64,000 nt of DNA from Euglena gracilis (taxonomy: Eukaryota), in the NCBI GenBank assembly GCA_039621445.1, contig CP154954.1:48091847-48155846 (forward strand), written 5' to 3'. Below, one piece after another: positions 12,501 to 59,100 of the stretch (its first letter is position 1; every line of letters starts with the position of its first letter). The notes below the pieces were generated by a model. The model saw nothing but the letters and a program-made list of their open reading frames with translations, had not been told where the DNA came from and did no database searches. The translations under genes and the position numbers were made by a program.

Positions 12501-15500
12501 CCGAATAGTTGCCCCCAGGGGCTTCTATTCAGGGGGGGTTAAGTGACTGAGCGATTGTAGTGGGCTTGGGTCTCAGATGTCAGGATGCTGAACTTGACGC
12601 GCATTGTCTTGCCAAATGTTAGCCCACCTAGTGTGGAATATTTTCTGTGGAGATATAAACATATAAATATAAATTGTTCGACATTGGGGGGATTGACGGC
12701 GATGGCACTTGAACGAAACAGCAAACTGCTGCAGCTGCAGGATCTGATCCTGAGTCACAAAAGGCATACGATGGAACCAAAATGGCACGCCGATTTGACT
12801 GGTAAAGCCGCGTCAGCCAGCCCTGAGCCAACAGGTTTAACATCCCTTCCAGGCTGGAATGTGTGAAAAGGGACAAAAAAGACACGCAATAGGACGCTCT
12901 CAATCAAGTAATTATGGCAAACAACAACTGATGATTGGTCACCATTGCCACAAACATGAGCACATTTTCGAGCAATTTACTCACCAAACTCACAACGATC
13001 CAATCAGGCTTTTGCTTAAGGGATTGCAGTGCCCCCGGGGGGGGGGGGGCTGGACTGCAGCTAGTCCAAATCTGGCTAGTGGGATTTCTAGCAGACCCCC
13101 CCCCGGGGGGGTCTGCTAGCAGGGCTAGCTAGTGGAAAATTTTTTCCAGTGACCGGCGCGAAGCACCAGAAACTTTTTTTGGGAATTTTTGGAACAAAAT
13201 CAGCCAAAAACCTATTAAAAACCTCATTTCCACCTCGGCGCGCAGCGCTGGAGGAAAAAAAAGGAAAAAAACTGGAGGAAAAAAATTCCAGTTGGGGGGA
13301 CCCCCGGACCCCCCCCCGGGGGGGAGGGGGGTCTAGCTAGTCCATTTTTTCCAGTGTCTAGCCGATTGGCTAGCCAGTACCCGGGGGTCCTTAAGCAAAA
13401 GCCTGGATCCAATGTGACTTTCATGTTTTTCATCAGGCTGGTCTGAAAAATGAAATCCCGCAAATGAAAACAAGAATTTTTTGCAACACCCCTTGTGCAA
13501 AAGGCAAAATTTATTACCATTGTTGTCAAATATTCGACTGATAGATCAGGGGCAAACAAACAAATCAATGGAAAAGCTTGCACAGGCGTTCATCTTTTAA
13601 AGCCTGAACAAAGATCGTGGAACGTAAAAATGACAGGAAAATAATACTTCAGAAAAAGCAAATTTGGGAAGATTTCAATTTCGAAATTCAGATTTTGGGT
13701 GCAGAGTTGTAACTGCGCACACCATGCAGATCAGTCTGAATACCCTGCAACCCCGGGTCGGGGGTTGGGCAAAGTGGGCACCGTACACCGAAGAACCTTT
13801 GGACCCCGAAATTGACCCCAAAAGTGGTCCCCCAAGCCCCCCCCCCCCCCGAGACCTCCCCCCAGGGGTGGGTAGGTGGATCCCGACCCCCAAAAACAAA
13901 AAAACCTCTGCCCCGACGCCATCTACAAGCTTTACCTATTTTTCTCTTCATTTGGAGTTTTTTTGAAGGCTTTGGCACCATTTGAGCTTGTTTTGGAAGG
14001 CTTTGTAAGCCAATTAAATAGTTTTGTTTGTTTTGCTGTTGAACAACGACATCCACATGCACATATGAGTTGTACACATATGAGTGGTTTTATCACCAGA
14101 AACCCCCACCCGTCAGACCAACTGGCTGGGCGACTCACCAACCCCTCCCAACGCAAGTGATAATTTCCATTACGTTGATTCCCTGAACAGTGCAAAGGGA
14201 ATTTGGAGAGCTCTGGCACCTGAAGGTGGCACTGCTGCTGGTCTGGGGTGTCCGGGGGTGGCCCGCTGAACAGCGCCGGGGCGGCAGGCGGGGGCGGGGG
14301 CGGCGGGGGCGGGGCTGGCTGGGGGGCACTGGCCCCAGCCCCCTCCGCGAATGGCCAGGCAACGGGCCGGGGATTGCCCACTGAGAGAGAAGGGGCCGCG
14401 TGTGCATCGCCACGTAGTCTGTCTTTGTCCCCAGGGAAAACGACAGCCACCTTTCGGTGTAAGCCGTAACAGAGGGATGTGATGGGCACATAATACATGC
14501 ACAATGGCTAAATGCCCTGTTTGCTTTTGTCAACCATGATCACTCCACCCAGGGGTTTGTGTTTTAAGAATGGGGGGAGGGGGGTGTCACCCACCCACCC
14601 GCCCACCCCCTGGCCGGGGGGGGGGGGTTGGGGGACCCAACCCACTTTTCCCTGAAAAGGCCAAAAAATAACAAAAATGCTAAAAAAAGGCACCTCTTTC
14701 AAAAATTTTCGGTGCCTTTGGCGCCGAAAAGTATATCCCACCCCCTGGGGGGACCCCCCCCCGGGGGGGCTCGGCCAGACCCACCCCCCCACCCCCCCAG
14801 GGACCAAGACAAAAAAAAACCCCCTGACTCCAACAGAAGAGGGGAGCCAGCTCTTGGCAGCAGGGTCGGTAATTGTTTCCCAACATTTTGGATGAGTGTT
14901 CACAAAAATCAGAAAAAGCAAATTTTGATCGAAACTGTGTCAAATTGGAGGATTTGCCTTGAACTGGATTGTTGGACAAAGATTGCTCAAACCAGACAGA
15001 GGGAGTGCGGAGTGGAACTCATGGGCCAGCACCTTCAACGCTGGGGATGACGCGCATCTCCACCTCCACCGCCGCTGCGCGTTCTTCGGTGTGCAGCTGC
15101 GTCACGTCCTCCTCGGTCTTCAGCCGGATCTGCATGCCGCCGCTGCTGGGGGGCGGGGGGCGGGCGGGGGGGGGGGCTTGTTTGTGAAACAGCACTCCGA
15201 CACCATCAGGGGGGGGGGGACTTTGATGCGAATTCGGCGTGGGAGAACCCGAACGTGCAGAAAACTGGGCACTGCGGTTTGGTTGCGGCCGTGGGGCCCA
15301 CCCAGCCAGGAATTCCTGGAAAAGAAAGGGGGGGGGTGCCCTGCCGTGTGTCAGCCAGTGGACCGGGATACCCTAAGTGTTGTGCCTGCCCTCCAACTGG
15401 TGGGCAGCAGGGGGGCAGGGCCACACGGTGGGTATGCCAGCTCGCAAGGACAAATTCCTTCGGTACTGAAGGCATCTGAAGGATCCCCGTTGAAAGTTCT

Positions 15501-18500
15501 GAAAAAGAAAAAAGAAAACCTGGCGCGGGGGGAGCCCAACCCACCCCACCCACTAATGGATATTCAATGGACAACCCCCTTCATACCCCCCCCAAGGGGC
15601 TCAGGGTCAGCTCTGGGGGGGGGGGGGTGAACACATTGCTGTGTTTCGGCATGGAATTTGACACCAAAGAGAACAGGAGGAAAAGCCTGGCAAGGAGGCA
15701 CTGGGGGTAGAGGTGGCTGCACTTCTTCCACAGGCGCAGCCATGATGCGGTCCACAGTCTGGGAGAAAGCGAATGCAATTCATACAGTTCATACAACAAA
15801 AAACAAAAAAAAATGCAAAAGCTACAAAAAACTGTAATAAAAACAAACAATAATAATGATAATTATGAATATGATAAAAAAAAATGAAAAATGATAAATA
15901 ATGATAAATATGAATATGATAAAAAATGAAAATGATAAATTCAAAAAAGATGCCCATCACCGATGCAAACCCAATCCAAACTAATCCATCCCAATCCACG
16001 CCAATCCACATTGCTAACCTCACCATTGAGATAAAATCAAAACACTTTCCACCCCTTTCAGAACGAAGACTGGTAATCTACTTGGGCTGTTAGCCCCTCT
16101 CAAATACAGAGGACATGAAACAGTGAGCTTTGCCCTTCCCCCAACCCCAATGTTCACATGGCATGGATGTGCGGTGGGCAACATGCCTGGCCGGCCCATG
16201 CCGCCACACCTCTTCTTCGCGCGGAGGAGGGTTGGCGGCCTTGGGGGCGGGTCGGCGGTCTTCGGTCAGCCGCCGCACGCCACTCCGCCGCATTTCGGCG
16301 TCCGCCACGCGGCGCTGCAGCTCGTCCCTCTCCCTCTCCAGCTGGAGAAGCTGTAGGCGGCGCCAGGGCGTCGCGTTCCACCACAACCCGTACCCCCAAG
16401 CAGGCTTCTTTTGAAGACTTCCCCAGGGGTTCCCCACCCAGCCTGGCTCAAGACACCCTTTTAATACAAAAAAGGTTTCTTGTTTGTTTATTTTTTTAAT
16501 GCCAGCGCGGACTTCGCATCTGGCCGGGTGTGTTCCGTGTGGTGAGTGAACATGCGCGCGCACAGGGGAGGGGGTCTTACAAGCCAAAAAAAAGGGCCTG
16601 CCCCCAAGTCCCTGCAACGTCTCTGAGTCCCGGTAACGTGCGCCCTCGGCAATGATGTTTGCCCGCCTGCGGGCAAACATCAACCAATGCCATTTCTGCA
16701 AAAAACCCAGGGGTATCTGAGGCACACTGCGTCGGTAGTGCATTTTGGGGGGGGAAAACAAGCAGTCCAGGGCGAAGGAGGGTTCCTCCAGAGTCCGTTG
16801 GGGGCCCACCCACCACTGGGTACACGGCGTCCCCTTTGGCAATGTCCCGGGCGGTGCCGCTCCTGCAGCAGGGCCAGCTCGGGGTCAACCGCCAGCAGGG
16901 AGGAGGAGGGGGGCGGAACCGGGGGGAGCGGGAGGGCCCCGTCCCCGACAGCAAACGGCGAGGGGCGTCGCAGGCCGGGGTCGGAGGGAGGCACAAGGCA
17001 CAGGAGAAGCCGGATGTGGGGCGGACTTTCTCCCTCGCAACAAATGAACGTCCACTTTCTGAGCAAAAGCCATATTTCTTGTCCATTGGATGGCGGTCCA
17101 CCACAGCTTGGCTTGCCATGCGTTGAACTGGAAAACACTGTTTTTTTTTTTTTTTCCCACCAACCCAGATTGGCCCAGATTGCCTGAATGGTGCTGCACT
17201 GAGAGGTGCACTGGGGGACCCGGGGGCAGGGGGGGAGGCGTCGGTGGGAGTGGTGCTCCGTAGTCTCGCAGGCTGGGGGGAGGCAGCGGCCGGTCGCAGC
17301 CAAGGCTTCCTGTTTGCCACCAGAGGCCAGGCTGGGCGGGGCGGGGTGGGCCCCAGGCCCTCGCTCCGGAAGGCGGCGGTGGGGGTGGCATGGGGGGCAG
17401 CGGTGGGGCGGTGCCAGGGGTGGGCGCGCCCTCGTCCACCAGGGCCGGGGCAAGCCGGGGCACACCGAACGGAGTGGGCGACCCGGAATGCAACAGCGTT
17501 CGGAACGTTCTGTGCTCTGACTCGCCGGAGGTTCGGCACTGGCAATGCGGCGGCCCAGCAATGTCAACGGCGGCCAAATCCTCCACGTCTATTGCACCCA
17601 GCGATCACACATCAGTTGGGCAGGTGAGTGGGAGAATTGATGGCCTCTCTCAAAGGCGAAGATGCAATTGGAAGTTGGTCATTCCAACGATGACGTGTCG
17701 GACCTCATACACAGCAAGGGGGTGGCGGGTTTCTGGCAGAGAATCCTGTGCCACAGCCAGGCCACAAGGTCCTCTGGGGGTTTCGGCAACGTCGACGCCA
17801 GACTGACGAGGTCGTCGGGAGGGTGGGGTTGGGGCCCTGAAAAGAGGTGCCCCATTCAGCGAAAAGGCGCCTGTCCCGGGGCAAGAGTTATATGATTCAA
17901 CCCTGTCTGTCGACATATTTACAGCATTGATGAACAGAAGCATAAAGGGTTTTGGGAGATGGCCTTTTTGCCAAGCTAATTTTGTAGATCCGGTTGGCCC
18001 CTGGTCGGGCCTGGTTCTAGCTGACATATGTAACAAAAAAGGGGTGCCCATTCAGAAATCATTTGCAAAAGAGTATTCTGTGACACACATCAAAACCACG
18101 AGATAACATTTTGGGTCATCCGCAGGGTTTGATATAAGGACAGGTGGGGGGGTGGTCCGGACCCCCCCCCCCCTGCGGGCCAGGAGGGGGGGTGGGGGGG
18201 ACACCCCCCACCTAAACCATGTACGCCCTCCTTATATCAAACCCTGGTCATCCGGTTGCCCCAATAAAAAAAAACAGAAGACCACTTTTGAACCTTTTAG
18301 TCAAATCATCACATACAGTATGAGACAAGGCCATTTTCTTCAAAGCATGCATTCTCATCTTTAGTTGCCACCAATGCAACTGGAAAACCTCCAAGACAAG
18401 GGAAAATGGATAAAAACTTCAACTGGAAAGCAAAAAAAAAGAACATACGATCTCGTGGAGGAGAATGCTGCATGCGAGCTGCTCCTCCGACTGGCCCAGC

Positions 18501-21500
18501 GTCATGAGCTGCATGCTCTAAAGGTCGCATAAAAAAAGCAGAATATTACATTGAAAGATGTAATCTGCAATTCAAAACCTTCACAGAGCTGCCATTATTG
18601 GAAGACAACTGAAACATGAATGAGCAACAATGAATCTCAAATCAGAGAAACAGTGGGGCAGGGGGGTTCATTTAGGGGGAGGGGGTACGTCAAAAAGAAT
18701 TTTTTTCAGCAAGCCCGGTCCTATGAAACACCCGCCCCACATTCAACAAGCTGAGCCCTGCTAATCATATATGAAACATATAACAGCATTGAGACTTTGT
18801 GAAAATAACACACACACACACACAGGGGTTGGTGCTTATCCATCGTTGGGGGTCAAATCCTCATCCATAGTCATCCATAGTTGTCCATAATTATCTGTAA
18901 TTATTTGTAATTGCAAAAACGCTTGTAACCCCCCTGATAAGTGCACAGTGCCCTAATTATGTGAGGTGCCCCAATTAATGCGCACCACCAAAGGGTCCCA
19001 AACTACCTCCCTAAAAAGTGCATGCCCCCAAAGGAGAAACTGTTGCCACATCAGGTCAGAGCACACACAATTATGCTGACTTTAAGTTCCTTCTCAATAC
19101 TGTCTTCCTCAGACCAAATACTTCTATCATCTGAGCCCAAATTTGACACATAGTCACCTGACTCATTGCTTGACATCACAAGAACAGGAAAAACTGTTCA
19201 AGAGTGGTGGAAAATTTATTATTTTGTGCCTTGCCGTGAGCAGTGCCCCAATGAGTGCACGCACCCCTGCAGGGTACGAAACTATGTCCTTAAAATACGC
19301 GCACCCGTGCACTTTTTAGGGGGGAGGTTATTGACTGGGCCAGACACCCAAAAAAAATGCAATGAAATGCAATGAGGAAAAGCAGATTAAATGCAACTTC
19401 TGAGACGTCCAAATACCAATCAAAAGAATTTGACTGGCATCCAAATGCTGATGTGCACGATGCATGAAACACCTCCCGTCCTCTCAGTCAAAAGCCCTCC
19501 TCAGTTATGCCAGACCCCATATCCATAGTTATCCACATTTATCCATACATATCCATATTTATCCGTAGTTTATCCATGGTCATCCGTATTTCGGGTTTCG
19601 CACTTCTCCGTTCTTATCTGTAGTTATCCAGAGTTATCCATTTCAGGATAAGCACGGATCCTGAATCACAGATGCCATACATACATACATACATACATAC
19701 ATACATACATACATACATACATACATACATACATACATACATACATACATACATACATACATACATACATACATACACATATATATGGCAGGCGGGTAGC
19801 AGGGGGGGCCCCTGGGAGGGCCCTGCTACCTACGACCCTGCACTGGGTTGTTGGGGATACTGAAGGAGTGGGGTTTGGGTCCCGGCTGGCCGGCCTCTCC
19901 GGGACGCACATCCCCCCCCCCCCCGCCCGCGCCCTCCCTTGGGCCATGCTGTGCGATTCCCAAAGGCGGCATACAGGCAGGGGTAAAGAAAGATAAAGGC
20001 CGCCGACGGTCGGCCCCCACAAGGCCTGTGTGGTGACCCCAACAGTGGCAATGTTCAGTCCTGGGGGGGAGCACGCGCGGCAGAGGCCAAACATTGTGGG
20101 GAGGGGATGTGCGTCCCGGAGAGGCAGGCCAGCCGGGACCCAAACCCCACTCCTTCAGTAACCCCAACACCCCAGTGCAGGGTCGTGGGTAGCAGGGAGG
20201 CCCCCCCCCGGGGGGGCCTGCTACCCGCCTGCCATATATATATATATATATACATATATATATTTTTTTAATATATATATATATATACACACACACCATT
20301 TTTGATATTTTGGGAGAACTGGGTATTTGGAAGGGTGCATTGGATCGTTTTGGGGATCTGATTTTGGAGATCTGCTTTGATCAACAATTCCTTGATGTAA
20401 GGAACTGTTGGCCCTTTGGCCCTTTGTCCCTTTGGCTGATAAACCAAACCAGATCCCACCAACCCCAGGGGTTCATGAATGGTGGGTTTATCCACTTGGA
20501 AATGAAGGCATTGCATACCAATCGTTCGTCCGACTTTGAGAAGATGGGGGATCCCTAGTATGGATATTCATGGATATGAAACTGACATTGCTGTCTTTCT
20601 GTGGCAACCATGCAGAAAAAATCTTGCAACCCCACCTTGATAATTGTTCAATCATTTGTGAGGAAGGATTGACAAAAAAAAACTGCGCTTTTTGTGGCAT
20701 TTTTGCCGCACACTCCCCCCTGAATTCAGCTTGATGTGGCGTGCCCAAAGCGCGTGAGGAGCGACGATGGACCTGTCTGGCAAAAGGCCTCTTCGTTTCC
20801 TTGCCGTCCACGCTCCCGACTTTTCTTCTCTTTCTCCTGCTGGGCTGCCCGAGCTGCCTCCTCTTTGATGCGTTGGAAGACCTCCGGAGGGAAGACGGCC
20901 ATCTCCGCCCACGTCCGCAGGAGTTTTGCATACTTCTGCTGATTGGACCCTGCGGTGGCACAGAGATGCCACCCCGGAAAGACCACTGGACAGCTCTCGT
21001 ACTGACCCTGGCCCTCTGGGTACCTGTTATTTGGCAATGTGGAAAACCTTGGTGCCCTGTTTGCTTCCCTAAAAAAGATATTTCCCAATATTGTGGAACC
21101 AATAGAAGCGTGGGACCACCACAAGTCTGCCCTCGGTCCGGTCCACCGCGCGCGCACCCCCAATTTTAATGGGAAGCCTCCAGAAATAAACAGAAATCAA
21201 ACAGGTCCAAAAAAGGTATCAAACAGGTCCAAAAAATAGAAACACAACTCCCGCTGCTGAAAGCGGCGGTCTGCCATCAATGCACCAGCACTTTAATTCA
21301 GAGACGGGGATTATAAATGGCAATGCTCTTTCGGAAGGATCACAAACAATATCCCCTCTGGGCGATGTGTGGGAACCAAAAATGACTCAGGATTGGAAAA
21401 CGTCCAGAAATGAATATTTTGCGAAAGCAAATAATGCATTTATCTCAAACTGTATTGCAAGGAATTCACATCTGGATATTTTCTTCTGACTTTCCGCTTG

Positions 21501-22359: not shown

Positions 22360-22661
22360 TGTAGTGCATTCTGGTGTAATTCCAGCGCTGTAGGGACATA
22401 CACTCACACCTTGTGTGGTTGGTGTGGTTGGTGTGGTCTGAGCCCCCCCCCCCCCCAGGGCACTGGGTCCTGGGCAGGGGTTGGACGAGAATCAAAAGAA
22501 AAAGTTTTCCTCTTCCTCAATGCTTTGTGCCAGAGAATTTCAGACCCATCCTCCCCTCCCCCTTCATTCAGTATTGCCTTTCTTTAAAGCACCTTGGGCA
22601 AGTGGCGGCTTCACGATCTTGGGCATTTTGCGGCTGCTGATTTTGCGGTATCGGCCCAACA

Positions 22662-25115: not shown

Positions 25116-25668
25116 GCAAATAAATTAACACGCACGCAAACAAACAAACAGTTAAACAAACTTTTATTTTATTTTTTTGGCATGATTTGATGTTTTTTGT
25201 GTTCGCCGTCACCCCACCCCGTCCATCATCACAAACCGCCCCGTGTGCCGCCCTCTCCCGCCCCCCCGTCGCACCGGCCCCACCGCCCCTGCCGGACGCC
25301 GTCGCCTCCGCGGAGGCCCTCGCCGCACACCACACGCTGCAGTGGCAGAGCGCGGCACAGGGCGTCGCGGCGGCGGCGGCGGCGGCGGACCGGGAGGCAG
25401 CGGCGCGGCGGGGCGAGCGGCCGGCGGCGGCGCTGCGCCAGGCGGAGGAGGAGTGCCGCGACCTGCGGTCCGCCCTGCAGCGGCTGCAGCGCGACGCGGG
25501 CGTGGCGGCGGAGCCAGGGCTGGCGATGCCGATCCTGCCATGGCCGTGCCGCCGGCCCTCCGGCTGTCTGCTGGGGGTCCACACACCAATTGTATATTCA
25601 ATATGTATATATATATACATGTACATATACATATACATATACATACATATATATATATAATATATATA

Positions 25669-25712
<44 letters not shown>

Positions 25713-26013
25713 AGTGTTAAGTTTAGGGCCCCCCCGGGGGGGGTACGAAGCTTGACACCGGGGTGGGCACCCCCTTAATGAAAGGTATAGGGTTAGGTGC
25801 GCACATGCTAATTTAAGTTAAATGGCTGCGTTGCGCTAATAGGCTATGTTGTGAAACAGTGTCGATTAGCGCAACATAGACAAATAGAGAAAATTAGCAT
25901 GTGTGCACCTAACCCTATACCTTCAATAACGGGGGTGCCCAACCCGGTGTCAAGTTTAGTACCCCCCCGGGGGGTACTAAACGTAACACTTGCCATATAT
26001 ATGTACATATATG

Positions 26014-26060
<47 letters not shown>

Positions 26061-26062
26061 GT

Positions 26063-26149
<87 letters not shown>

Positions 26150-44100: not shown

Positions 44101-47100
44101 CCACCTGCTGGTCCAGGGATGGGGTGCCTTGCCACGCCCGTCCCAAAACCCACTCCCCACCGTCCAGCTAGCCGCAATGCGTGAGTGGTGATCCACTGCC
44201 GAGGGCCCAACATTTTCGGCTGGGGGGGGGGGGAGGGGCGGGGGCATGGGACGGCCAGAGCTGCCACGGGAGGAAGTTGGGGTGGGGGTCGGAGTGCCCT
44301 CGCGCGTTGTGGGACAGGTGGGAGTGCCGGGGTCGTTGGGAGGTTGTTTGCGGGGGCGGGGGGGGGGGGGGGAGACGGGCTTGTATAGAGATTGAGGACC
44401 ACAACGTGCCCGCGTGGGAGTTGAGGGTTTTGGAGGATGGTTGGGGAGGGGGGTTGGCTGGACCGGCAGGTGCCGGCGCAGCGGAGGAGCAGACACAGGA
44501 CATGGCGCGGCAGCTCGCGGCCCAGGGGGAGGAGTGTGCACGGCTGACCACGGCGCTGGCGGAGGCCACGGCGGGACAGTCGGCGGTGGAGGCGCAGGTG
44601 GCGGAGCTGAAGGGGCTGCTGGCAGCGTCGCACTCGCAGGGGGCGGACGTGGCGCGGGAGATGGTGGCGCTGCGGGAGCAGCTGCACGAGATGGAGGCGG
44701 AGTAGGGGCGCCTGGAGGAGGGAGGCGACGGCCAGCCGAGCCCCTTCGCCGCTGGCAAAACTGGCGAGGGCGGGCTGCCAGTGCGGGTTGGGGTGGGCTG
44801 GGTGGGGCGATCCCTCCCTCCCTTGGTTATTTCGAGCAACCCCACCCCCCGTCCTGCACTGCCCCCCCTTGAATAATTTGCCGACGTTTTGGGGCTGGCC
44901 TGCTGCAAGCACCAAAGCACGGGTGTGGGCGGGCTGGTGGGGGGGGGGAGGTGCTTCCCCTGAACGAAAAGCGACCCAGGGTCCCCCGGCGGTCACAGCG
45001 AGGGTGGGGCTCAAAGCAGGCTCAGGGCAGTGGGCAGGCCCTCACGTGGCCCCTCGGTGGGTTCCAGCACCTCGCAGGGGGGACGTGCAAAGGGTGAAGG
45101 GGCCGGCTGCCAGCACTGCTGAGCGACAAGCTGGCGGGTCTGGAGGAGCAGATGGCCGCTGCGGCGGAAGCAGCTCGGCAGACGCTTGCGGCGGTGGAGG
45201 GGCAGGCGGCGGAGGAGCAGCGTCGCTTGTGCGAGGCGATGGAAGGAGCGAAAGTTGACCACCTGCTGGTCCAGGGATGGGGTGCCTTGCCACGCCCGTC
45301 CCAAAACCCACTCCCCACCGTCCAGCTAGCCGCAATGCGTGAGTGGTGATCCACTGCCGAGGGCCCAACATTTTCTGCTTGGGGAGGGGGGAGGGGCGGG
45401 GGCATGGGACGGCCAGAGCTGCCACGGGAGGAAGTTGGGGTGGGGGTCGGAGTGCCCTCGCGCGTTGTGGGACAGGTGGGAGTGCCAGGGTCGTTGGGAG
45501 GTTGTTTGCTGGGGCTCGGCGGGGGTGGGGAGACGGGCTTCTATAGAGATTGAGGGCCACAACGTGCCCGCGTGGGAGTTGAGGGTTTTGGAGGATGGTT
45601 GGGGAGGGGGGTTTGGCGGGACCGGCAGGTGCCGGCGCAGCGGAGGAGCAGACACAGGACATGGCGCGGCAGCTCGCGGCCCAGGGGGAGGAGTGTGCAC
45701 GGCTGACCACGGCGCTGGCGGAGGCCACGGCGGGACAGTCGGCGGTGGAGGCGCAGGTGGCGGAGCTGAAGGGGCTGCTGGCAGCGTCGCACTCGCAGGG
45801 GGCGGACGTGGCGCGGGAGATGGTGGCGCTGCGGGAGCAGCTGCACGAGATGGAGGCGGAGAAGGGGCGCCTGGAGGAGGAGGCGACGGCCAGCCGAGCC
45901 CCTTCGCCGCTGGCAAAACTGGCGAGGGCGGGCTGCCGGTGCGGGTTGGGGTGGGCTGGGTGGGGCGATCCCTCCCTCCCCTGGTTCTTTCGAACAACCC
46001 CCGCCCCCCGTCCTGCACTGCCCCCCCCTTGAATAATTTGCCGACGTTTTGGGGCTGGCCTGCTGCAAGCACCAAAGCACGGGTGTGGGCGGGCTGGTGG
46101 GGGGGGGGTGCTTCCCCTGAACGAAAAGCGACCCAGGGTCCCCCGGCGGTCACAGCGAGGGTGGGGCTCAAAGCAGGCTCAGGGCAGTGGGCAGGCCCTC
46201 ACGTGGCCCCTCGGTGGGTTCCAGCACCTCGCAGGGGGGACGTGCAAAGGGTGAAGGGGCCGGCTGCCAGCACTGCTGAGCGACAAGCTGGCGGGTCTGG
46301 AGGAGCAGATGGCCGCTGCGGCGGAAGCAGCTCGGCAGACGCTTGCGGCGGTGGAGGGGCAGGCGGCGGAGGAGCAGCGTCGCTTGTGCGAGGCGATGGA
46401 AGGAGCGAAAGTTGACCACCTGATGGTCCAGGGATGGGGTGCCTTGCCACGCCCGTCCCAAAACCCGCTCCCCACCGTCCAGCTAGCCGCAATGCGTGAG
46501 TGGTGATCCACTGCCGAGGGCCCAACATTTTCTGCTTGGGGAGGGGGGGGGCGGGGGCATGGGACGGCCAGAGCTGCCACGGGAGGAAGTTGGGGTGGGG
46601 GTCGGAGTGCCCTCGCGCGTTGTGGGACAGGTGGGAGTGCCGGGGTCGTTGGGAGGTTGTTTGCTGGGGCTCGGCGGGGGTGGGGAGACGGGCTTCTATA
46701 GAGTTGAGGACCACAACGTGCCCGCGTGGGAGTTGAGGGTTTTGGAGGATGGTTGGGGAGGGGGGTTGGCTGGACCGGCAGGTGCCGGCGCAGCGGAGGA
46801 GCAGACACAGGACATGGCGCGGCAGCTCGCGGCCCAGGGGGAGGAGTGTGCACGGCTGACCACGGCGCTGGCGGAGGCCACGGCGGGACAGTCGGCGGTG
46901 GAGGCGCAGGTGGCGGAGCTGAAGGGGCTGCTGGCAGCGTCGCACTCGCAGGGGGCGGACGTGGCGCGGGAGATGGTGGCGCTGCGGGAGCAGCTGCACG
47001 AGATGGAGGCGGAGAAGGGACGCCTGGAGGAGGAGGCGACGGCCAGCCGAGCCCCTTCGCCGCTGGCAAAACTGGCGAGGGCGGGCTGCCGGTGCGGGTT

Positions 47101-50100
47101 GGGGTGGGCTGGGTGGGGCGATCCCTCCCTCCCCTGGTTCTTTCGAACAACCCCCGCCCCCCGTCCTGCACTGCCCCCCCCTTGAATAATTTGCCGACGT
47201 TTTGGGGCTGGCCTGCTGCAAGCACCAAAGCACGGGTGTGGGCGGGCTGGTGGGGGTGCTTCCCCTGAACGAAAAGCGACCCAGGGTCCCCCGGCGGTCA
47301 CAGCGAGGGTGGGGCTCAAAGCAGGCTCAGGGCAGTGGGCAGGCCCTCACGTGGCCCCTCGGTGGGTTCCAGCACCTCGCAGGGGGGACGTGCAAAGGGT
47401 GAAGGGGCCGGCTGCCAGCACTGCTGAGCGACAAGCTGGCGGGTCTGGAGGAGCAGATGGCCGCTGCGGCGGAAGCAGCTCGGCAGACGCTTGCGGCGGT
47501 GGAGGGGCAGGCGGCGGAGGAGCAGCGTCGCTTGTGCGAGGCGATGGAAGGAGCGAAAGTTGACCACCTGCTGGTCTAACCCCAAAGGGTTTTTCCAACA
47601 CCCGTCCAATTTTTTTGTTCCAGTTCTTTTTCCTGCTCTTTGCATTCCAAGTGTAATTTTACCTCGATATTCCACCTCTGGTCACCTGCAGCTTCTGTTT
47701 TGGCAGGATAGAAATTAATATCTGCAACTGTCCCGTAATTTTGCTGCAATTTTCAGAATTTCACCTGCAATTATCCGTATTTTTCCGCTCGCCTCTGATA
47801 TCAATTCCTCCTCCTCACATATGTAATTTGGAAATCTTGATCTAAGGCTACGAACAGTGGGTTACAGTGAAGCGGCAGAGCAGATACAGCAGCTGAAGTG
47901 GCATCTCGCAGCCCAGGGGGAGGAGTGTGCACGACTGACTGCTGCACTGGCGGAGGCGACGAAGCAACTCCATTTCGCTGATTCTCGCCCCGGCTGTTGC
48001 TTTTTTACACATTTCCTCTTGTTGAACAGCTTTACAAAATTGCTTTCCGCCATTCACATCTAATTTTTTGCTGCACCACCCAACCAAATAGGCTTCTTTG
48101 CTGGCGCCTTTGAACTCTCCACAGAAGTTTTTTCCACCGTCCTCGTTTCTCTTTTCCTTTTCCTTTTTTTTTGTGCTCCAATTCATGGTTTCTGTGCTTT
48201 GCATTCTTGAACTGCGATGCCCGGTCAGCAGCTGACCAATTTTCAATCCACCCTCCAGCTGGAGATGGCAACTGGTGGATTATCGTGCTGTTACCTCTCC
48301 GATGTGTCTGAGGCTGGTGGCTTTTGACATTGTGCAGGCCTGAGACCACTCCCTCTGTGATAGCGAGCGTTTTGGAGGTGGAGCCTGACGGAGTCTCAAC
48401 TAGTTGCACCACAGAGAGATGTGGCGTGATTCCCCAATTGCAACCCAGGCTCCAAACCAAACTTTTTTTTCAGTCGGTGCCAACCCCATGGGGGGAGGTG
48501 CTAGGGGCAGGCACCCCATAGCACCCCTGCCAACCCCCCCCCGGCTAAACTACCTGAGACTTTCCCAATCAAAAATTCCCAGCTCATTCTCCTGAGTTCA
48601 CCGCTGGATTAAAGTTGTTGTGTGACCCTTCTGGCTTGTCATGCCCAAAACGTTGTCAGTTTGTTTGGTTCTGGACCACCTGTCACGTGAAAACAAAGTT
48701 GCCAGGATCCCCGGAGCTGGGTGGTTTGTCAAGTGACCGTTTCCCAGGGGTGGCAGGCAAGCATTGGGGTCGAAACGCTCAGACGGGACCGAAGCAGGAC
48801 TAGAACCCGGCGGGTGCTCCGAAAGCCCACCACCGTTGGCCCTGCTGACCGCCTCCGCCGCCATGGCAGACTGCACCCCCGTGGCCGACCCTGCCCTCAC
48901 CCCCGGGGACCCGGAGGCCCTCCTCCCCGCCGACGCTGACGCCCTGGACGAGCTGGTGGACGTCGTGACCCACTTCCGGGGGGCCCTGTGGCGCTCTTCC
49001 CCCCAATGGCCGGAGTTTATTTGTTTAGTTTGCTGTGGCTTTAGTTTTGGGGAAATGACCGTGTCCTCTGGTCCCCTGGGGTGGGGGCTGAACAGCAGCC
49101 GGCAGCCAGGCCGTTGATCGGGCCCAACAACCCTAATTTCAGCGCCGCAAAACCGGAAGTGGTTGGGCTGCTGCCAAACCATTCGCAAAGTGACAGCTGG
49201 CCGCGGCGGCGACCCATCGCCACCCGACCGCCAGTGGACCCCCACAACGTTAGGGGGGTCACTGGTCGGGTCGCCCCCCCCCCCCTCCGTCAATTCACGG
49301 TGGGCTGCGCCACAAAGCACGCCGCAGCCCCCGTCCGGCGGCGTGTGGCAGCCGAGGGGGCGGGGCTGAAGGGGCAAGGCCCGGCAGCTGGAGGGCCGGG
49401 CTGAGGCGATGATGGGGCCGGGGAAGCGGCGGGAGGGATTGGCGGCGCCCCCCCCCCGCTGGGGGGGCAGGCGGCTGGAGCGGAGTGGACACGGCGCAGC
49501 TCACGGAGCAGCTGGCGCCCAGGGGGGTCCAGCGCCGGATGGCCGCCCGTATTTTTTTTTGCAACATCCACCAAAAGTGGTTTGTTCTTGCTTGGTCCTT
49601 TCCTTTCTTTTTTTGGGGGGGAGCCAGCAGACCACACAGGACGTAATTGGCTCCTGGTTGAAAAATGGCAGCAGGTAATCTCTTAAGCAGGACGGGAAGG
49701 GTCCAGCCAGCCAGCACCTCCCAGCAGGGTCGCGGACTCCCCCGGGTCAAAATTAAGTTTTCACATCCCGGCAAAGGACTAGACCGAAAAAAGTCGGCGC
49801 AAAGCTCCGAAAATTTTGAAATAAAGTGGTCAAAAATGGCCAAAAAGGCCATTTTTTTGTACTTTTTGGGGGGTTTTCACCTCAAAGATGCATCCCAGGT
49901 AGGTTTTGGGCTGTTTTGCCTGTTTTGGGGTGCCAGCCAGGCCCAGCCCGGCAGCTGGGTTCGAAGCACCTCCCTGGACCACCACTCCCTGGGGGGGGGG
50001 TCCAGCCAGCACCTTTTTCCAGCCGGAACCTCTTTTCAGCCGGCCGGCTGGACCCCCCGGGGGTCCTTATTAAACTCCCTGAAGCCTGGAAGCCACGACA

Positions 50101-53100
50101 CGGCCGTGGCTTCCAACAACCAACCCCTCAGGGACGGGCAATGCAGGGCCCGCTTGATGGGAGGGGCGGGCATGGGCAGCGCGGACTGCCCAGCCAGCGG
50201 CGGTCACGGTCCGCAACGAGCGGCTGGAGGCGGAGGCGGGGCGGCTGCAGCTCGAAGTGGGGGCGCTGGGGCAGGACCAGACCCGGCTGCGGGAGGAGCT
50301 GGCGGCCCACCAGCACATCACTGCGCCCAGCCCCGGTTCGGCTGTCCTCCCCCGCCATTGCCCTTTGCCCCTCCCCCCGCTGGGGGTTACCACTCAGCAA
50401 AGTTGATGAGCAGGTCGTGACAAATGAACCGCTGGTGGCTGTATGGGACGGGGGGAAATCGCTGCAGCGGAAGGGGAGCCACCTTTGATGATTCGGCTTC
50501 ATTTCGGATTGATTTTTGAGCAGGTTCGATTTCCGAGGTTGAAGTCTGCTTTGGGGAGGGGTCACCCTTTTTTTTTATTCAGCCCAAGTTTTGCAGCACC
50601 AGATGGGATTTTCAGGAAGCGACACTTTGGTTGCACAAGGTCCCCAATTCCATCAGAGAGGAAGGCTGTCAGGGGCTTTGGGAGCCCAACCCCGCCTTCC
50701 GTCCACCTGCGCTGCCGGGAGCCCAGCAGGCGGTGTGGGACGAGTCCCGCAGCGCACTGGAGGCGCAGCGCGACGACGCCCGGGAGCAGTGTGTCGGGCT
50801 GCAGTCCGCACTGCACACGCGGTCCGCAGAGTGCCACCGGCTGCAGGAGACACCCACGGCCCGGGGGGGGGGGCTCAATGCCGCCATTCCGACCAGCCAA
50901 GGTTCGATGACGGAGGTGGCAGGCGTCCAACCTCGGCGTTGGCCACCTGTCTGCCGCCGGCGCCCCGGCCCGTGCCGGCACAGCGGGGCCTCGAGGGCGA
51001 GCTCGCCGCCACGCATGCGGAGCTGCACGCGCTGCAGGCTCACTGCCGGCACACGGAGCAGCGGGCGCTCGACGCCGCGCGGGACGCTGCAGCGTACCAG
51101 AGCCGGGTGCAGACCGCTGGGGAAGAGGCGCGAACGCTGCACGAGGAGATGGAGTGCGCGGCCCAGCCGGCTGTTGATGAGACCCCTGCCAAACGCAAGT
51201 CCCACAAAGGACTGCATCCCCCATCCCCCTCCTCCCCTATAATGGGTGTGTCAGTGAGGGGATGGACGCAAAGGCTGAAGCCAGATGCGAAGCCAATGGG
51301 AGGATTGCAATTCTGCGGTTGCCCTCTCGCCCCAAACTTCGTGATTCACAACGTGCTTCTAAATGTTCCCTCGAGGCGTGGGCCCATCAACGTGCCAACT
51401 TACTTTTTTTTTTGCATTTTCCTTCATGGGGTGTTCATTCTGTTCCTCCAGTGGGTGGCCCGTTTTTCAGGTGAATGCCCCCCCATGCGGCCGGCTGGGC
51501 TCGGCGGGGTTTGACCCAGCACGGGGTGCCGGGGCCTTGCTTTGTGCCAACGTTGTCATGAATGGCCACAGCGCCCCCCCCCCCCCCCTGTGCCGGCCGG
51601 CCTGCGGCCCCAGCGCTTCGGGAGCAGGCGGCGGCGCTGCACGCGGTGGCGGAGGAGCGCCAGGACCGCCTGGCCAGCGCGGCGGAGGAGTTGCGCAGCG
51701 CCCACGACCAGCTGCAGGCGATGGCGACGGCGAAGGCGTCCACCGTGGAGCGGCTGGAGGAGGAACTGGGGCAGCCCGGAGCCGGGGTCTGGCGCCGGTA
51801 ACATGTCGGTGGGCATCGAGTCAGGACAGACAGTAGTTCAACTCTTTTGTGGTACACAGCTGGTGTTTTTGATGTGCCATTTGGACACAGTGTACATCCA
51901 AGAAACGTTGACACTAAGAGCCTAAATTGTTAGAGGTCAAATTTCCTGTTTACTTTTGACTTTCCGGACCTGGGCTGGCTCCGTTGCACTGCGGCTTGAG
52001 CACGGCCAAGCCTTGCACCTCCAGAGCATATTTTGCCTGAGACATCTTAGCCAGCTCCCTCCTTTTCGGTGCTTCATCTGCCAGTCTGCCTTGCTACCGG
52101 ACCGACGGGATGTAGTTCTCAGAGGTGGGAATTCCTAATGCCATTCCACCACTTGCACAGAGCAACCGCCCGCCCGAGACCTCGACAGCTTGGGTTTTGG
52201 GTCCGACTGGAGCCTCTGATCGTGCTGGGGTGTCAGCGAATCGTTTTGATAGCCACTACCGACTTGCGCCCCCTTCCTCCCCCCCCTCAGGGGTGGCCCG
52301 GGGCTTGCGGGTGTGCGGCGGCTGGAGCACTGGGAGCAAGCAGAGCGGGGGCGGCTGGCGGTGGAGGAGCAGCTCGGGTGGTGTGGCGTGGCGGAGGGCT
52401 GGCAGCTGCTGGCAGCGCGGGCTCGGCAGGAGGCGCAGGTGGCGGGGCTGCAACACGCCATCGCCGACCTGCGCGAGGACCTGGCGAGGCCCCGCGCGTC
52501 TTTAGTCCTCGGTTTGCGTGGGCTGTGCCGGAGGTATTATCCACCTGTTTTCAGGCATGGGTGGAATGGGAGCAGCATTTGCGACTACACTTTTCTCGTG
52601 TGGATTCAAACAGAGAAAACACTTGTCACGCAAGCTCTCAAGCAAGAACGCCATTTGCATGCGCGGCACGTCTTTGCCTCCCCTGCCCTACCCCCCCCAA
52701 GCAGGGTTTGATATAAGGAGGGCGTACATGGTTTAGGTGGGGGGGGTGTCCCCCCCCCTCCTGGCCCGCAGGGGGGGGTCCGGACCCCCCCCACCTGCCA
52801 GGGGGGTCCGGACCGACCCTCGGGGGGGGTTCCCGGGACCCCCCCCAAAAAGGGTCAATTTTTTCCTCCGGCGCTTCGCGCCGAAATTTTTTTGCATTTT
52901 TGGCACATTTTTGCCCCAAAAGTGCCCAAAATGGCACTTTTGGTCGTTTTGGGGGGTCAAAAATTTTCGGCCCGGCGCGAAATTCGGCCACCCTGACCGC
53001 GCACCTGTTTAGGTGGGGGGGGGGTGTCCCCCCCACCGCCCCCCCTCCTGGCCCGCAGGGGGGGGGTCCGGACCACCCCCCCCCACCTGTCCTTATATCG

Positions 53101-56100
53101 AACCCTGCCCCCAAGCTTGTCTGAGCCAGGGCCTCCCCCCGGCCAAGGCGGAGGCGCTGCGGGCGGCGCTGGAGGGGCAGGCCAGCGCTCTGCGGGAGGC
53201 GGGGGAGGCCCAGCGCGCCGCCGCGGGGGACGCGCTGGCGGAGCTGCACCGCCGGCTGGATGTTGCTGCGCGGGACGGCGAGGCGGCTGCGGCGGCGCTG
53301 GCGGAGCTGCGGCAGAGCAACGGCCGCGCCCGGGGCGGTGCTGTCGCCCAACCCCCCCTCCCCCGGTTCGTGTCCACGGAGGGTGGGTTTGTGGTCCAGC
53401 CCGTTGTTTCCGGCCCTCGACTCCCGGACTGAAATCCGTCCCAAAATTTCACCACACTCGGTTGTTATTAATTGCCCACGTCGCCCAACGTTCACTCTTT
53501 TGAGCCGCACTGCACTGCGTTTCTTTGCAGTTTAAAACTGTATTTTTTTTAACACGGGGAACGCTGAGCGCAGCCCCGGCCCTCTCGTGGCAGAGGCCTC
53601 CGAGTTACAGTGCACTGTGGCGACCGCCATTCTGCTCGCTGGCAGGATTGGGTTCAAGCCTTCGCTCACCCCCACACCCCCACACCCACACACAGAGCCA
53701 AACGGCCCACACGACCCCTTTTGCAGTGTGTGCGAGTGCACAGACCTTTATGCAACTAACGGGCATCGTTTTGAAGGGCAGAAAGTCAGACCATCTGTGC
53801 ATATGCGTTTTGGCCCACAATCGACTGCTTGATTTTCTTGACGCTCCATCCCCTTCAAAAAGTCTGAAGAAACCTCTTGAGTGGCATTCTGGGACGCTCT
53901 GCGGCTTGTACAATGTACTGTGACAGCAGGGTCTTTCTTCCTGGAGGGGACCTTACCCCCCGGAGGGGGTCCAGCCAGCCATCACTTTTTTTTCCAGCCG
54001 GCACCCCCCGTGGCCTGCTGAAACAAAAGTTGGGTCCAGCCTGGCGAAGCAGGGCAGGAAAAAAAATTTCGGCGCAAGTGCGGGAAGTTTTTGAAAATGG
54101 GGTCAAAATGGCCAGAAATGGCCATTTTGACCTCCTAATTTGGCCGAAAAATGCACACCCAGATGGATTTGGGCTTTGTAGGGCATTTTTTTGGGTCCAA
54201 CTGTCTGCCGGCCGGCCGGAATCAGAGGCGGGGGTCCAGCCAGCACCTTTTTGCAGCCGGCCCACAGGACCCCTCAGTGACCCTATAATACAACCCCCCC
54301 CCCCCCCCAAAGTGGGTGTGGGGCCCCCACAGCCACGCCATTGGGGGCCCCATATGGGGTGGGTGTGCCCGGTCCCAAAAAAAAAACCTTCCCCCCCTCT
54401 TGACGGTGGCCGCCGGGTGGCGGGCCCGCAGCTGTTGGAGGAGGGCCGGCAGGCGGCGGAGGCGGCCGCGCTGCGGGACCAGCGGGACGCCGCCGCGGCG
54501 GAGGAGCGGGCGGCGCTGCAGAGCCGGCTGGCGGCCCTCGAGGCGCAGCACACCGCCGCCCTGCGAGAGCTGGCGTCGCCCCAGGGTCCCCACAGGTGAC
54601 CGGGGGGGGGGGGGCGTGGCGTGCTGAACTTTCAGCCGGCGGGCTGGTGGGCGGCGGGATACTGCCATCCGTGGTCCCCTGCACCAACCGGCTTCATCGG
54701 AGGTGGTGTGATTGCGCAGCCGGATCGTCTGTGTCCCTACCATACGGACATGCAAGCAGGTGCCCCCAAAAAAGAGCCTTGGCCACCGCACTCATGATGC
54801 GGTTGCCAAGTCTTTTTCCTGCATTGTTTCAGCCAAGTCCAGGGATAGCTGAGAAGATTTTTTTCGGGGGGTATTGAGCATAGGGAGGTATAGATTTTTT
54901 TTGGAAGTCACCAGAGGGTTTCTGGCACCAGCCAATGATCGCCTCCAATATCTGCAGACTGAATTTGAAGTGGTCACTACTGGGCAGTCCTCCGTTGGGC
55001 AAAGCTATGTATGCATTTTGGTGAGGAAGCTGAACCAACGCCATATGCTTGAGCAAGCAAAGGGAAGGTTAAAAACGTCATGGGATCGATGGGATGACAA
55101 ACTTCGAAGGAGGCTCGAGATTTGGGAACCTCGACAGCGTGCACATGGTGATCCATTCAAGGAGTCATGCGGGAATTCAACACCTTCCTCCTCCTTTTGT
55201 GGCTGGTCTGCGTGATTTTTGTCTATGTATTTCTTCATCATTTTTCTCCAGGGTGCCAGTGTGGAATTTCGATTTTTTTTTGTATTTTTGTGGTTGGGAT
55301 CAATCAGGCTTCTTTAGAGTCAAAAGAAACCTCCCTCGGGGTCCTGGTCTGGAGGCGAGGTGTAGGTTTCGGCGCGTAACGCCGAATTTTTTTTTGGGAA
55401 ATGGTCTCAGACGGCCCGATTTTTGGCCTCCCCCCCCTGGGGGGGGGACCGGGCTGGCTGGGCTGGGGGACCCCCCCGGGTCTGAACCCTGCTTGGGAGA
55501 ATCATCTGTAAGTGATTTTTTTGGTGCTTGTGTTCACATCAGATATTTAAGGGGCGTGGTGTGGGTCCGGATCCCCCCCTTCCCCTGGGGGTCCTTAAAA
55601 AACCTCTGGCTCATATGACGGAGCACTGTAGGCGAGAGGGAAGCAGCGATCCAGCGTGCCTCCGTTCTTGATGGCTGCGTGGGCCAGCCCACTGTGTCTT
55701 GCACCACATTCAGCACCTCAAAACCCAGCTCTGGCTGCACACTTCATGCACAGATCACCGCACACATACCCCACCCCCCCGACCCACACAACGTACACGC
55801 CATGCGCCTGGTGAAGGCGGGCACCCCATTCCCATGACACAGCTCGCTGACGCCAACGATGCACATGCCATGTGCCTCCGGTGGCTGCAGCACGCTGAGC
55901 AGGCTGGGCGCACCGCTCTGGGGACGGAAGAGCGGCTCGGCCGGACTGACGCGGAGCAGCGCCTCAGACGGGAGCTGCGGGAGCAGAAGGACCGCGCGGC
56001 GGACCAGTGCCGGAGGGCGGCGGACCGGTGCGCGGCGGAGGAGGCGGAGGGCCGCGTCGCGCTGATGCTGGAGTGCTGGCAGCCGGCCAACACCCCCCCC

Positions 56101-59100
56101 CCCCCAGTCCACATTCCAGCCACCCTCGGTGACAGAACAACCCCAGAAATGTCTGCGAGTTGCCAATTCCCCATCCCCAGAGACGACCTTCCAACCAGTG
56201 GTTGTTGTGTCTGGGCACAGGCTGAACTCAAAGTATTCGCCCACCTTGACTTTGGCAGACAAGCGTTGGTTCTCACTTTTTGGATGCCCAAGAAAGCGTG
56301 ATTTTTCTCATGTACTGATTTTGTTGTTTGCCTCCCGACAGGTCATCGCGCTGCCCATGGGGCAGGGATGGGTTCATGACGGGGTTTTGATTTTTTTGAC
56401 GCAGTGTCGGAGAAACCAGACTCTGGGTATGTCAAAAACTGTCAAAAAAATGTCGCGGAAATCAAGAAGGTGATTCCTAATTCAATGGGCCGCCCTTTCT
56501 GAGTGTCTATTTTTTCGCATAAAACATGGCGGACAAGTGAAATCCCCTGGTGGGGTCACAGTACCAAGTATCAAGTGTGAGCTTGCCCGTGGGCAGGGTC
56601 ACCCTTCTGTTGATTTGCCAGTGCCGGGGAGCCGGAGGCGATTGTCCCACTTCCTCTGCCGGGATTGGCTGCGGTGGGGATGCCGCTTGTCCTTGGAACC
56701 CCTCACCCTCCTCGGCCTAACGACCCCCCGTCGGAGGCCCTTCTTTTTGGTCCGAAAATGATGTCCAACGACCACCCCCCTGTCAGAGGACAGAGATTTC
56801 AGTCCTTGGACTTTGATTTGGTACGGATTTGTGAGGTTGGGAGTGGTTGGACGACGTGAGGGTGGGGCGGTGCGGGCAGCGGTGCAGTGGGGGCGGACGG
56901 CTTGGAGACTGCGGCGGGGTTGCAGGGGGAGGCGGCGGCGCTGCGGCGGGCGATGGACGTGGCGGAGAAGCGGCAAGGCCAGAGCGAGGGAGAGGCCGGC
57001 CAGGCCAGGCCCCCTTGCAGGGGAGTACACATGTGGGTTTTTTTGCCTTTTTTGATTCTGATCAAATTTGTCTTTTTTGCTTTTTTTGCCTTTTCCCCAA
57101 AAAAATTTTTATTCTTGTTTGGGAAGCAACATATTGTGGCCAAAGTTTGTTAAAACCAAATCTTCGCATTTTCTGTGCATATTGGCCCAAAAATGTGTAG
57201 TTTCAGAATCAGCCAATTCCCACCACCAATCTTAATGTTTACGTATTTGAAAAGATTTTACACCTAGGTCTGATTTTCTTTTTTTTTTGTGTGCCTTTTT
57301 TGCATTTTTCCCCCTTTTTTTGTGTCGCAATTTTGGAGTGTCCATACTTTCCTCATTCTTTCCCCCTGCCTCTTGTGGGGTCTATTGCCCATCCTCCCAC
57401 GAAGTGCGGGTACCTTCCAGAGTGGCCCCGCCTGAGGACGCCAAGCATGAGAAGCAGCTGGCGGAGGCCTCCCATCGGGCTGCGCTTGGGGTTGGGCCCA
57501 CCTTCCTGCCCTCACCCCCCCTCGTCTGTTTCTTGCTTTGTGACGTTTGCCATCACGCTTGGACGCACCCTGGGGGAGGTATGGGGACTTTCGGTCGCGG
57601 ATTCTCTGCGCATGTCACCCTCGTTTGGAGACATGCCCGACCCCTGCCTCAGCCCTTGTTGAACAGCTCCAGGTGGCCGTTGTGCAGCGTGATCGGTGGG
57701 CCCCTGGGGGGGAAGAGGAGCATTGGGGAGAAGCAACGGGGGGGGGGGGGGGGGGGGATCAAAAAGGACATGGTCTGCAGTGATGTAATTTGAATGGAGA
57801 CAGGGGGGCAATATGCAACTTGCATAATTTGCAATCTTTTGCATAATCAGTTTTTTTCCGAAATTTGCATTTTTTGCATTTTTTTTGCATTTTTTTGCAT
57901 AAAATATTTTGCCCTGGAAATTTTTTTGTAGTTGGTCGCCATGTCATGCTTTGTCTGGTGCCATTCATGTTGATTTTCAAAGTTTCGGTGCTTGCTATTG
58001 TCTTCCATGAGGTCAATCATTGACAGGCACACCGGCATTGTCACATGTTTACGGATTTTAGGCAGCAAACTCTGTTATATTCCAGCCTTTTCTCAGGGGT
58101 TTTACGCAAGTTGCATTTTTTGCATTTTTTTTGCATTTTTTGCATTTTTTTTGCGTTTTTCTGACTTGCATAATTTGAAGGGCCAAGTTGCATATCCCCC
58201 CCCCCTGATAGAGAGGACAAAAAAAAAAAAAAAAAAGCAGTCTGGCAATGCAGATTATTGGTATCTCAAACGGATATCGAAGCACTTCTCCAACACAAGA
58301 AACAGCCATGCAGAATTCCTGTCCCCCAATCAGGGTTTTTTTATGTTTGCCCCCCCGGGGGGGGGGGGGGGGGGTGGGGGGGGTGGGGCCGGCCGCCCCC
58401 CCCCCCCCCCCCCCGGGGGGTCCCCCCGGAGGGGGGTGGGATATACTTTTCGGCGCCGCAGGCGCCGAAAAAATTCTATTTTAGCATTTTTCGCATTTTT
58501 TTTTGTTTTTTTTTTTTCTGACATTTTTTTGTGGCCACCCGTGACCCCCCCCCCCCCCCCCCCCCCCCCCCGGGGGGCCCCCAGGGGTGGGTGGGGGGGG
58601 ACCCCCCCCTCCCCCCCCGGTCTTAAAAAAAACCCCTGCCCCCAATACCCACCCCCCTTGTGTGTGTTGTGGCGGGCCATGTGGTGGTGGTCGGGACAAC
58701 CCACGCTGCACGGCCAGCGGACCACCGGTGGGGACGCAGCGGAGAACCGGGCGGCAGCGCTGCAGGCGCAGCTCGAGACGCTGCAGGCCGCGGCCGGAGG
58801 GGCGGCGGCCGCCCGCGCAGCCCTAACCGAACAGCTCCAGCGGCTGGAGGAGGACCACACCCACGCCATTGCCTCCGAGCAATGTCAAGGTGCCATAGTC
58901 TGGGCATTCTTGTCTGGCCGCAGGCGGCAGTGGCCACCACCACGGACCAATTTCGGAGGTGTCGTGGCCAGCGGGGCACCTCCCACATTTTAACTCCCAG
59001 AAGGAGCCACCACCGGGGTCCCCACCGGCTGGCTCACAATGTCCTGCTCATCTCTTGCCAAAAGTCTTTCTGTCTGGCACGAGCCCCACTTGCACGGCGA

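Follow-up and report, generated by a model that had tools for sequence, protein, structure and literature searches.

The nonconventional introns of Euglena are the closest described relatives of the system considered here (PMC12501133, PMC3935182 and PMC4770533). Knock-in experiments (Nomura et al. 2025, PMC12501133) define their code as exon|N3-CDG...CH'G-N5-6|R-exon, in which exactly 3 nt separate the donor cut from CAG, and 5 nt (6 being tolerated) lie between CTG and the acceptor cut; a purine is required as the acceptor exon's first base, while the end of the donor exon is free. This motif was derived solely from introns without junction repeats. Among 55 natural introns (Milanowski et al. 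2016, PMC4770533), a pyrimidine ends the upstream exon in 49 and the intron itself in 49, and a purine occupies intron position +1 in 51 and downstream exon position +1 in all 55; within the downstream exon, A at +2 is more conserved than C at +3 (30/55). The same study describes a newly gained gapC intron with an eight-nucleotide direct repeat, which its authors attribute to break repair. An origin of nonconventional introns from MITEs (miniature inverted-repeat transposable elements) was proposed in 2014 (Milanowski et al., PMC3935182), and PMC12501133 mentions MITE-like elements and calls the origin of euglenid nonconventional introns unclear. A stretch of 64,000 nucleotides from Euglena gracilis (assembly GCA_039621445.1, contig CP154954.1, positions 48,091,847 to 48,155,846), referred to below in its entirety as the window, contains ten or more copies of short, hAT-like, non-autonomous MITEs with 8-bp target-site duplications (TSDs), and these TSDs share a sequence bias that coincides with the published junction consensus.

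Termini that begin with CAG and TSDs of 8 bp are ordinary features of hAT transposons, whose short terminal inverted repeats (TIRs) beginning CAG represent a YARNG-type terminus. The hAT target consensus, nTnnnnAn, is palindromic and is typical of the superfamily rather than defining for it. The window elements resemble Ac/Ds-like hAT MITEs in their 8-bp TSDs, their short CAGG TIRs, their non-coding bodies of 0.1-0.5 kb and the A at TSD position 7, but their target is one-sided instead of palindromic, and T occurs at position 2 in none of ten sites read in the same orientation.

Two further groups of MITE-derived introns are described in PMC11282704. The introner elements of Micromonas, Aureococcus and dinoflagellates are likewise MITE-like, derive part of the splice junction from the TSD and are spliceable at birth; they differ in being spliceosomal, with GT/GC-AG ends and TSDs of 3-5 nt, whereas the elements studied here would have AA...CC boundaries, both cuts within an 8-bp TSD and probably a non-spliceosomal machinery. 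A test of the window elements as spliceosomal introners failed, as cuts at TSD 5|6 (between positions 5 and 6) would produce AA(G/T)...CCCCC and the element termini are CAG/CTG, not GT/GC...AG. The non-canonical introns of Fritillaria borealis are similar in their TIRs and TSDs, their non-GT/AG ends and their preferred exonic context, but they depend on a modified spliceosome, have AG-AC or AG-AT ends and follow no CAG/CTG stem rule in the available description (PMC11282704).

A scan of the window for CAG/CTG ends with a TIR match of at least 8/12 and a TSD mismatched at no more than one base returned 11 matches, compared with 0-5 across 20 shuffles. Seven of these are convincing (elements G, A, F, E, B, C and D), while the weak matches at 26369, 55892, 55997 and 56586, all with TIRs of 8/12, lie at noise level. 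A second scan that was blind to the flanks detected 21 pairs of inverted repeats, where shuffles gave 1-8, and identical flanks (8/8) were seen in it for A, B, C and D only. Elements H, I, J and K were added by reading the sequence and by motif search; the statistics draw on sites A-J, with K left out, and the strand given for each element is the one on which its TSD reads pyrimidine|purine (Y|R) at 5|6.

The original prediction had claimed, from seven TSDs placed within 12997-58646, that a pyrimidine|purine step at positions 5|6, mostly CC|AA, is common to all of them. The seven sites exist, five on the + strand and element B on the minus strand; the remaining one, GCCCC|AAG, lies at 5364-5371 and thus outside that range, and two of the TSD pairs are imperfect, namely that of F (7/8) and that of I, whose partner repeat matches at 7/8. 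When either strand was allowed and all 8-mers of the window served as background (0.39 for Y5|R6, 0.037 for CAA at positions 5-7), these seven sites gave Y|R in 7/7 (p=0.0014) and CAA in 5/7 (p=1.3e-6). The seven sites that were found regardless of TSD content, counted by hand, give the same figures (7/7 and 5/7) and hence the same arithmetic, and the ten sites A-J show Y|R in 10/10 (p=8e-5) and CAA in 8/10 (p=1.4e-10). The four noise-level matches, by comparison, show Y|R in 2/4, close to background. The weakness conceded at the outset, an orientation chosen by eye, is answered by the free choice of strand in these tests, while the small size of the sample stands.

In the oriented matrix of the ten sites, position 3 is a pyrimidine in nine, position 4 is C in eight and position 5 is C in nine, followed by A in nine sites each at positions 6 and 7, which gives the consensus NNYCC|AAK. 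At position 8, G or T predominates (G 6, T 2, C 2), unlike the C found there in 30 of the 55 published introns (PMC4770533). The Y|R reading falls on the + strand for eight sites and on the minus strand for two (two-sided binomial p ~0.11). A purine is present at position 6 on one strand in all ten sites and on both strands in nine (background 0.23, p=1.4e-5), since a pyrimidine at position 3 places a purine at position 6 of the reverse strand; this double count is tied to the C-richness of positions 1-5 and is not independent. By the published code, nine of the ten insertions would be predicted to be spliceable in either orientation.

The two offsets of the code (PMC12501133), 3 nt on the CAG side and 5 nt on the CTG side, add up to the length of the TSD, so that in a CAG...CTG element both cuts would fall at TSD 5|6. 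This agrees with the position at which the original prediction had placed them. With cuts at 5|6, geometry alone sets CAG at +4..+6 and places CTG at -8..-6, counted from the cuts. Because the two cuts lie at the same point in both TSD copies, excision would take out the element plus one TSD copy and so recreate the empty site, and because the two junctions are copies of one TSD dinucleotide, Y|R would appear at both. The published consensus, mapped on the TSD, reads Y|R-A at positions 5-7, as do the window sites. In predicted RNA folds of the + strand, all three CAG:CUG pairs close the terminal stem in five of eight elements (G, F, E, B and C); the pairing is slipped in A, and J and D are unpaired at CAG/CUG. 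B folds into a terminal stem of 18 bp that leaves the TSD halves unpaired (z=-5.15).

The likeness to Euglena nonconventional introns thus extends to CAG/CTG placed 3 and 5 nt inside the cuts, paired ends, the acceptor purine, Y|R junctions and junction repeats, including one of 8 nt (PMC12501133, PMC3935182 and PMC4770533). The window copies differ in being genomic repeats apparently outside exons, and no RNA joint that skips an element was seen over the eight of them covered. Already in print are the Y|R consensus, TSD-like repeats, an origin from MITEs and, for one newly gained intron, an 8-nt repeat. In their accessible parts, the same three papers name no transposon family, draw no link from 3+5 to an 8-bp TSD and describe no target-site preference, and no paper naming source elements or a target preference was found in a literature search that left subscription journals and supplements outside its scope.

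The main source of the bias is here taken to be a preference for certain target sites when the elements insert, and not selection for splicing, a conclusion held with slightly better than even confidence. In the proposed mechanism, the transposon would integrate preferentially at NNYCC|AAK and generate an 8-bp TSD. A transcribed copy would be cut, following the published code, at 5|6 of both TSD copies, and the element would be lost with exactly one TSD, leaving the empty site as before. TSD position 6 would then serve as the purine that the acceptor exon requires as its first base, and the preferred target would already carry the published Y|R-A junction consensus. The MITE families of the window would, on this proposal, be a source of nonconventional introns. 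The claim that an insertion bias supplies the junction consensus is borne out in so far as the bias is real and matches the Y|R-A of the 55 natural introns (PMC4770533); the purine is functionally required, however, and so is not merely inherited from the target. In sum, the original observation is confirmed and proves stronger than first stated; its interpretation, in which the bias would pre-adapt the elements to splicing, is partly supported, and the link to splicing is one that this analysis proposes.

Element lengths range from 124 to 481 bp; the bodies are non-coding, and the ends are CAGG...CCTG in inverted orientation. TIRs match at 9-12/12, and TSD identity is 8/8 in A, B, C, D and E, 7/8 in F, G and I, and 6/8 in H and J. 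Sequence beyond the TSDs differs between elements, which indicates independent insertions. Element A (12997..13413, +; body 13005-13405, 401 bp) is flanked by GATCCAAT/GATCCAAT and has a perfect TIR of 17 bp, CAGGCTTTTGCTTAAGG. Element B (18115..18254, minus strand; body 18123-18246, 124 bp) has the TSD GTCATCCG, or CGGAT|GAC in minus-strand reading, and a perfect 18-bp TIR, CAGGGTTTGATATAAGGA, that is common to B and C. Element C (52694..53115, +; body 52702-53107, 406 bp) belongs to the same family as B, the two being mutually inverted, and carries the TSD CCCCCAAG. The same TSD, CCCCCAAG, flanks element E (16393..16608, +; body 16401-16600, 200 bp); the flanks and bodies of E and C are unrelated, so they represent separate insertion events despite their common TSD. 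Elements D (58323..58646, +; body 58331-58638, 308 bp; TSD CCCCCAAT) and F (14542..14834, +; body 14550-14826, 277 bp; imperfect TSD ACTCCACC/ACTCCAAC) are related and likewise mutually inverted. The last of the convincing CAG-MITEs, G (5587..5951, +; body 5595-5943, 349 bp), has the TSD GGTGCAAG / TGTGCAAG.

The added elements are less complete. Element H (6570..7069, +) is a decayed CAG-MITE with the left end ACCCCAAG|CAGGGGTTTT and a right end ...AAAACCCCT, where the final G is missing and ACCCCAGA comes next. Element I (5145..5371, minus strand) is a partial element, read on the minus strand as GCCCCAAG|CAGGGATTTT...; its TSD site is CTTGGGGC, the GCCCC|AAG site mentioned above, and the partner repeat (5145-5152) has the minus-strand sequence GCCCCAAT. 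A single CAG-type terminus is recognisable in I, the far end being without CAG/CTG. Element J (2684..2906, +; body 2692-2898) is a probable CAG-MITE with the flanks GGTCCAAG / GATCCAAA and a weak TIR that consists of CAGGC alone. Element K (55297..55499; body 55305-55491), of undefined strand, is of the CAG type and its flanks form no direct repeat; they read GGATC|AAT on the left (+ strand) and CTCCC|AAG on the right (minus strand), and K may consist of two half-elements fused by deletion.

In the bins that hold A, B, H, I and F, summed DNA contig depth reaches ~400-5000 times that of single-copy bins, with the highest value, ~5000x, in the bin of A; this measure is not a copy number. The H family is highly repeated by the same measure. 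E and J are found at single-copy DNA depth, and E is spanned whole by one DNA contig. A metagenome scan with the TIR of A yielded 117 loci, of which the 80 listed each contain a single match; six weak inverted partners have no TSD, and these loci were set aside as chance matches. A Pfam search of ten long open reading frames in the window, which was not thorough, returned no family, and Rfam and tRNA searches of the window gave no matches.

The setting of the elements bears on whether they could have been selected for splicing. A long + strand gene with coiled-coil-like exons extends over 25424-63969, from ~25.4 kb to the end of the window, and C, K and D sit between its exons. C is nested in an inferred conventional GT...AG intron at 52534-53125 (+) that is in frame, with the donor AG|GTATTA at 52533|52534, a pyrimidine tract and the acceptor AG at 53124-53125; the right TSD of C ends 9 nt before this acceptor, inside the pyrimidine tract. 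E lies ~45 nt upstream of a possible minus-strand acceptor, CCTACAG| (16288-16400, minus strand), so that both copies inspected in this respect (C and E) are near intron 3' ends. For the exon next to C (P0008), no homolog was found among 1.84 billion representatives, nor in a weak search among longer proteins, and its junctions are consequently not mappable from a spliced protein. A minus-strand gene at 9-21 kb is possible, on the evidence of coiled-coil-like frames and of X24 first mates that map almost only to the + strand in unique bins. Relative to these tentative gene strands, the TSDs of C, D and B read in sense and those of A, F and E in antisense.

Overall, the copies look intronic or intergenic and not exonic. 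The test for an element that interrupts an exon continuous after excision failed for the copies in the window, and excision restored no convincing reading frame, with null p >0.8 for A, B, F and J. Frame restoration looked marginal at C (p=0.045) and E (p=0.10) and was discarded, as the translations look non-coding. In two raw RNA runs over 2401-19650, no joint skipped any of the eight elements covered (J, I, G, H, A, F, E and B) at a depth of at most 4. Most reads lie only partly on this region (278 of 328 in X21 and 183 of 201 in X24), their source being other repeat copies, and this result says nothing on splicing either way. A loose-end RNA consensus at the borders of B was rejected as a TSD logo, because its 7-8 reads agree at 0.5-0.6 and are too noisy. 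A 63-nt piece inside H (6651-6713) abounds in RNA, with flanks that are foreign and uniform (27 reads before it with an agreement of 1.0, and 61 behind it) and with two fixed differences, so that an expressed paralogous sequence must exist elsewhere in the genome.

Selection after insertion is the alternative that survives best, and it is considered unlikely. In its simplest form, insertion would be free of preference, and only copies with an acceptor purine, and perhaps other favourable bases, would be spliced cleanly and so persist in transcribed DNA. The requirement for that purine in knock-ins (PMC12501133) is in its favour, as is the observation that most of the window resembles transcription units, on the + strand at 25-64 kb and possibly on the minus strand at 9-21 kb; a strand-specific filter on RNA would also yield a non-palindromic consensus. 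The bias reaches positions that the code does not need, however. It is present at positions 4, 5 and 7, which correspond to free spacers of the code and, in the case of the donor exon end, to an unconstrained base, and this favours insertion over selection. The apparent location of the copies outside exons, where exact excision is not needed, and of C inside a conventional intron makes it more likely that the bias arose at insertion. The low RNA depth and the absence of joints over the eight elements, the lack of convincing frame restoration and a TSD polarity that does not follow the tentative gene strands were counted on the same side. An unrelated element with an 8-bp TSD in the tandem array of the window, described below, has the TSD GGATGGTT without Y|R on either strand; although a single case, it was counted for a preference at insertion.

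Several points weigh against a preference at insertion as the main source of the bias. Since knock-ins show the acceptor purine to be necessary, it cannot stem from insertion bias alone, and selection would enrich it too. A non-palindromic consensus is unusual for a transposase that acts as a symmetric dimer, and the data leave the asymmetry unexplained; TSD polarity follows the internal orientation of the elements in B/C and does not in F/D. Eight of the ten sites read C|AA on the + strand, which may reflect a regional or strand effect. The sample comprises about ten sites from one 64-kb window, and three of these (H, I and J) are motif-search finds and hence ascertainment-biased additions. 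For E and J, single-copy depth gives no support to membership in a repeated family, and no hAT transposase turned up among the ten open reading frames scanned with Pfam. The strand of the 9-21 kb gene is assigned from few stranded reads and coiled-coil-like frames, and the absence of element-skipping RNA joints, within the limits given above, belongs to the same side of the balance.

A target preference of hAT-like MITEs that has nothing to do with splicing, so that the fit to the code is a coincidence or the copies are left unprocessed here, is regarded as rather improbable. CAG termini with 8-bp TSDs are ordinary for hAT elements, C lies within a conventional intron, and the eight elements covered by RNA gave no skipping joint, all of which this explanation accommodates. 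Against it stand three independent coincidences with the published code and consensus: the CAG/CTG ends, the sum 3+5=8 and the Y|R-A at TSD positions 5-7. The 8-nt junction repeat at a recently gained nonconventional intron (PMC4770533) and the closure of the terminal stem by CAG:CUG in most of the + strand folds are further arguments for a connection between target preference and splicing.

It is very unlikely that the 8-nt direct repeats stem from double-strand-break repair instead of transposition, a source that PMC4770533 proposes for the newly gained gapC intron: the repeats are always 8 bp long and always flank CAGG...CCTG inverted repeats, and the bodies come from highly repeated families, with a cut-and-paste signature. 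Chance, or an artefact of sites and strands chosen by eye, which the small sample and the motif-search origin of H, I and J might suggest, was tested and rejected on the strength of the seven sites picked regardless of TSD content and of the near-background noise-level matches.

The array just mentioned (34172-48400) is a repeated exon block of the + strand gene, with 11 units of a ~1150 bp period that are 97-100% identical. In the array-unit intron at 38312-38665 (after ...DHLM) and its equivalents, the rule N3-CAG...CTG-N5|R keeps the coiled-coil frame; the nearest GT with a CAG|GT acceptor breaks it, and a GT ~14 nt further keeps it. The sequence CTGCTTGGGG, which occurs nine times in the array units, was rejected as a MITE end, its terminus not being of the CAGG type. 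The unrelated TIR element, with ends GGCATAAAGTGGAGCCCCCACAG and the TSD given above, is present at 39801-40186 (386 bp) and 42492-43283 (792 bp), in two array units that are not adjacent but have it at one and the same site; this pair is one insertion that was copied along with its unit and has since altered in size.

A second class of MITEs, with the ends GGCA...TGCC, occurs at 19787-20233, 25709-25994 and ~26196-26937; the first two elements lie in (TA)n or ATATATAT flanks, a target that differs from that of the CAG class. A 144-bp hairpin at 4874-5017 with perfect 14-nt ends, CAGGGTACTCAGCG, was excluded from the CAG class, as its inverted repeat extends outward and has no TSD. Other repeats include a (CATA)25 microsatellite at 19676-19777, a TA/CA-rich palindromic low-complexity block at 25600-26180 and short TTAGGG-type telomere-like repeats at 5076-5092 and 26285-26300. 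The window is eukaryotic, with 48-69% G+C and many poly-G/C runs.

The window provides concrete candidate families for the origin of euglenid nonconventional introns, and the sum 3+5=8 offers a simple arithmetic link between transposition and splicing. A more far-reaching proposal, advanced tentatively and with less than even confidence, is that nonconventional splicing in euglenids undoes the insertion of hAT-like MITEs at the level of RNA, that new copies could be spliced from the moment they insert, whichever strand is transcribed, and that the natural Y|R would be a footprint of the TSD and not a recognition signal. The absence of a requirement at the donor exon end in the knock-ins is consistent with such a footprint. 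Under a preference at insertion, intergenic and polymorphic copies are predicted to carry the C|AA logo as well. If this is borne out, part of the splice consensus would be the footprint of a transposase, and new insertions into genes would be harmless from the start, which would help to explain the rise of nonconventional introns to 71.8% of the introns of E. agilis (PMC12501133).

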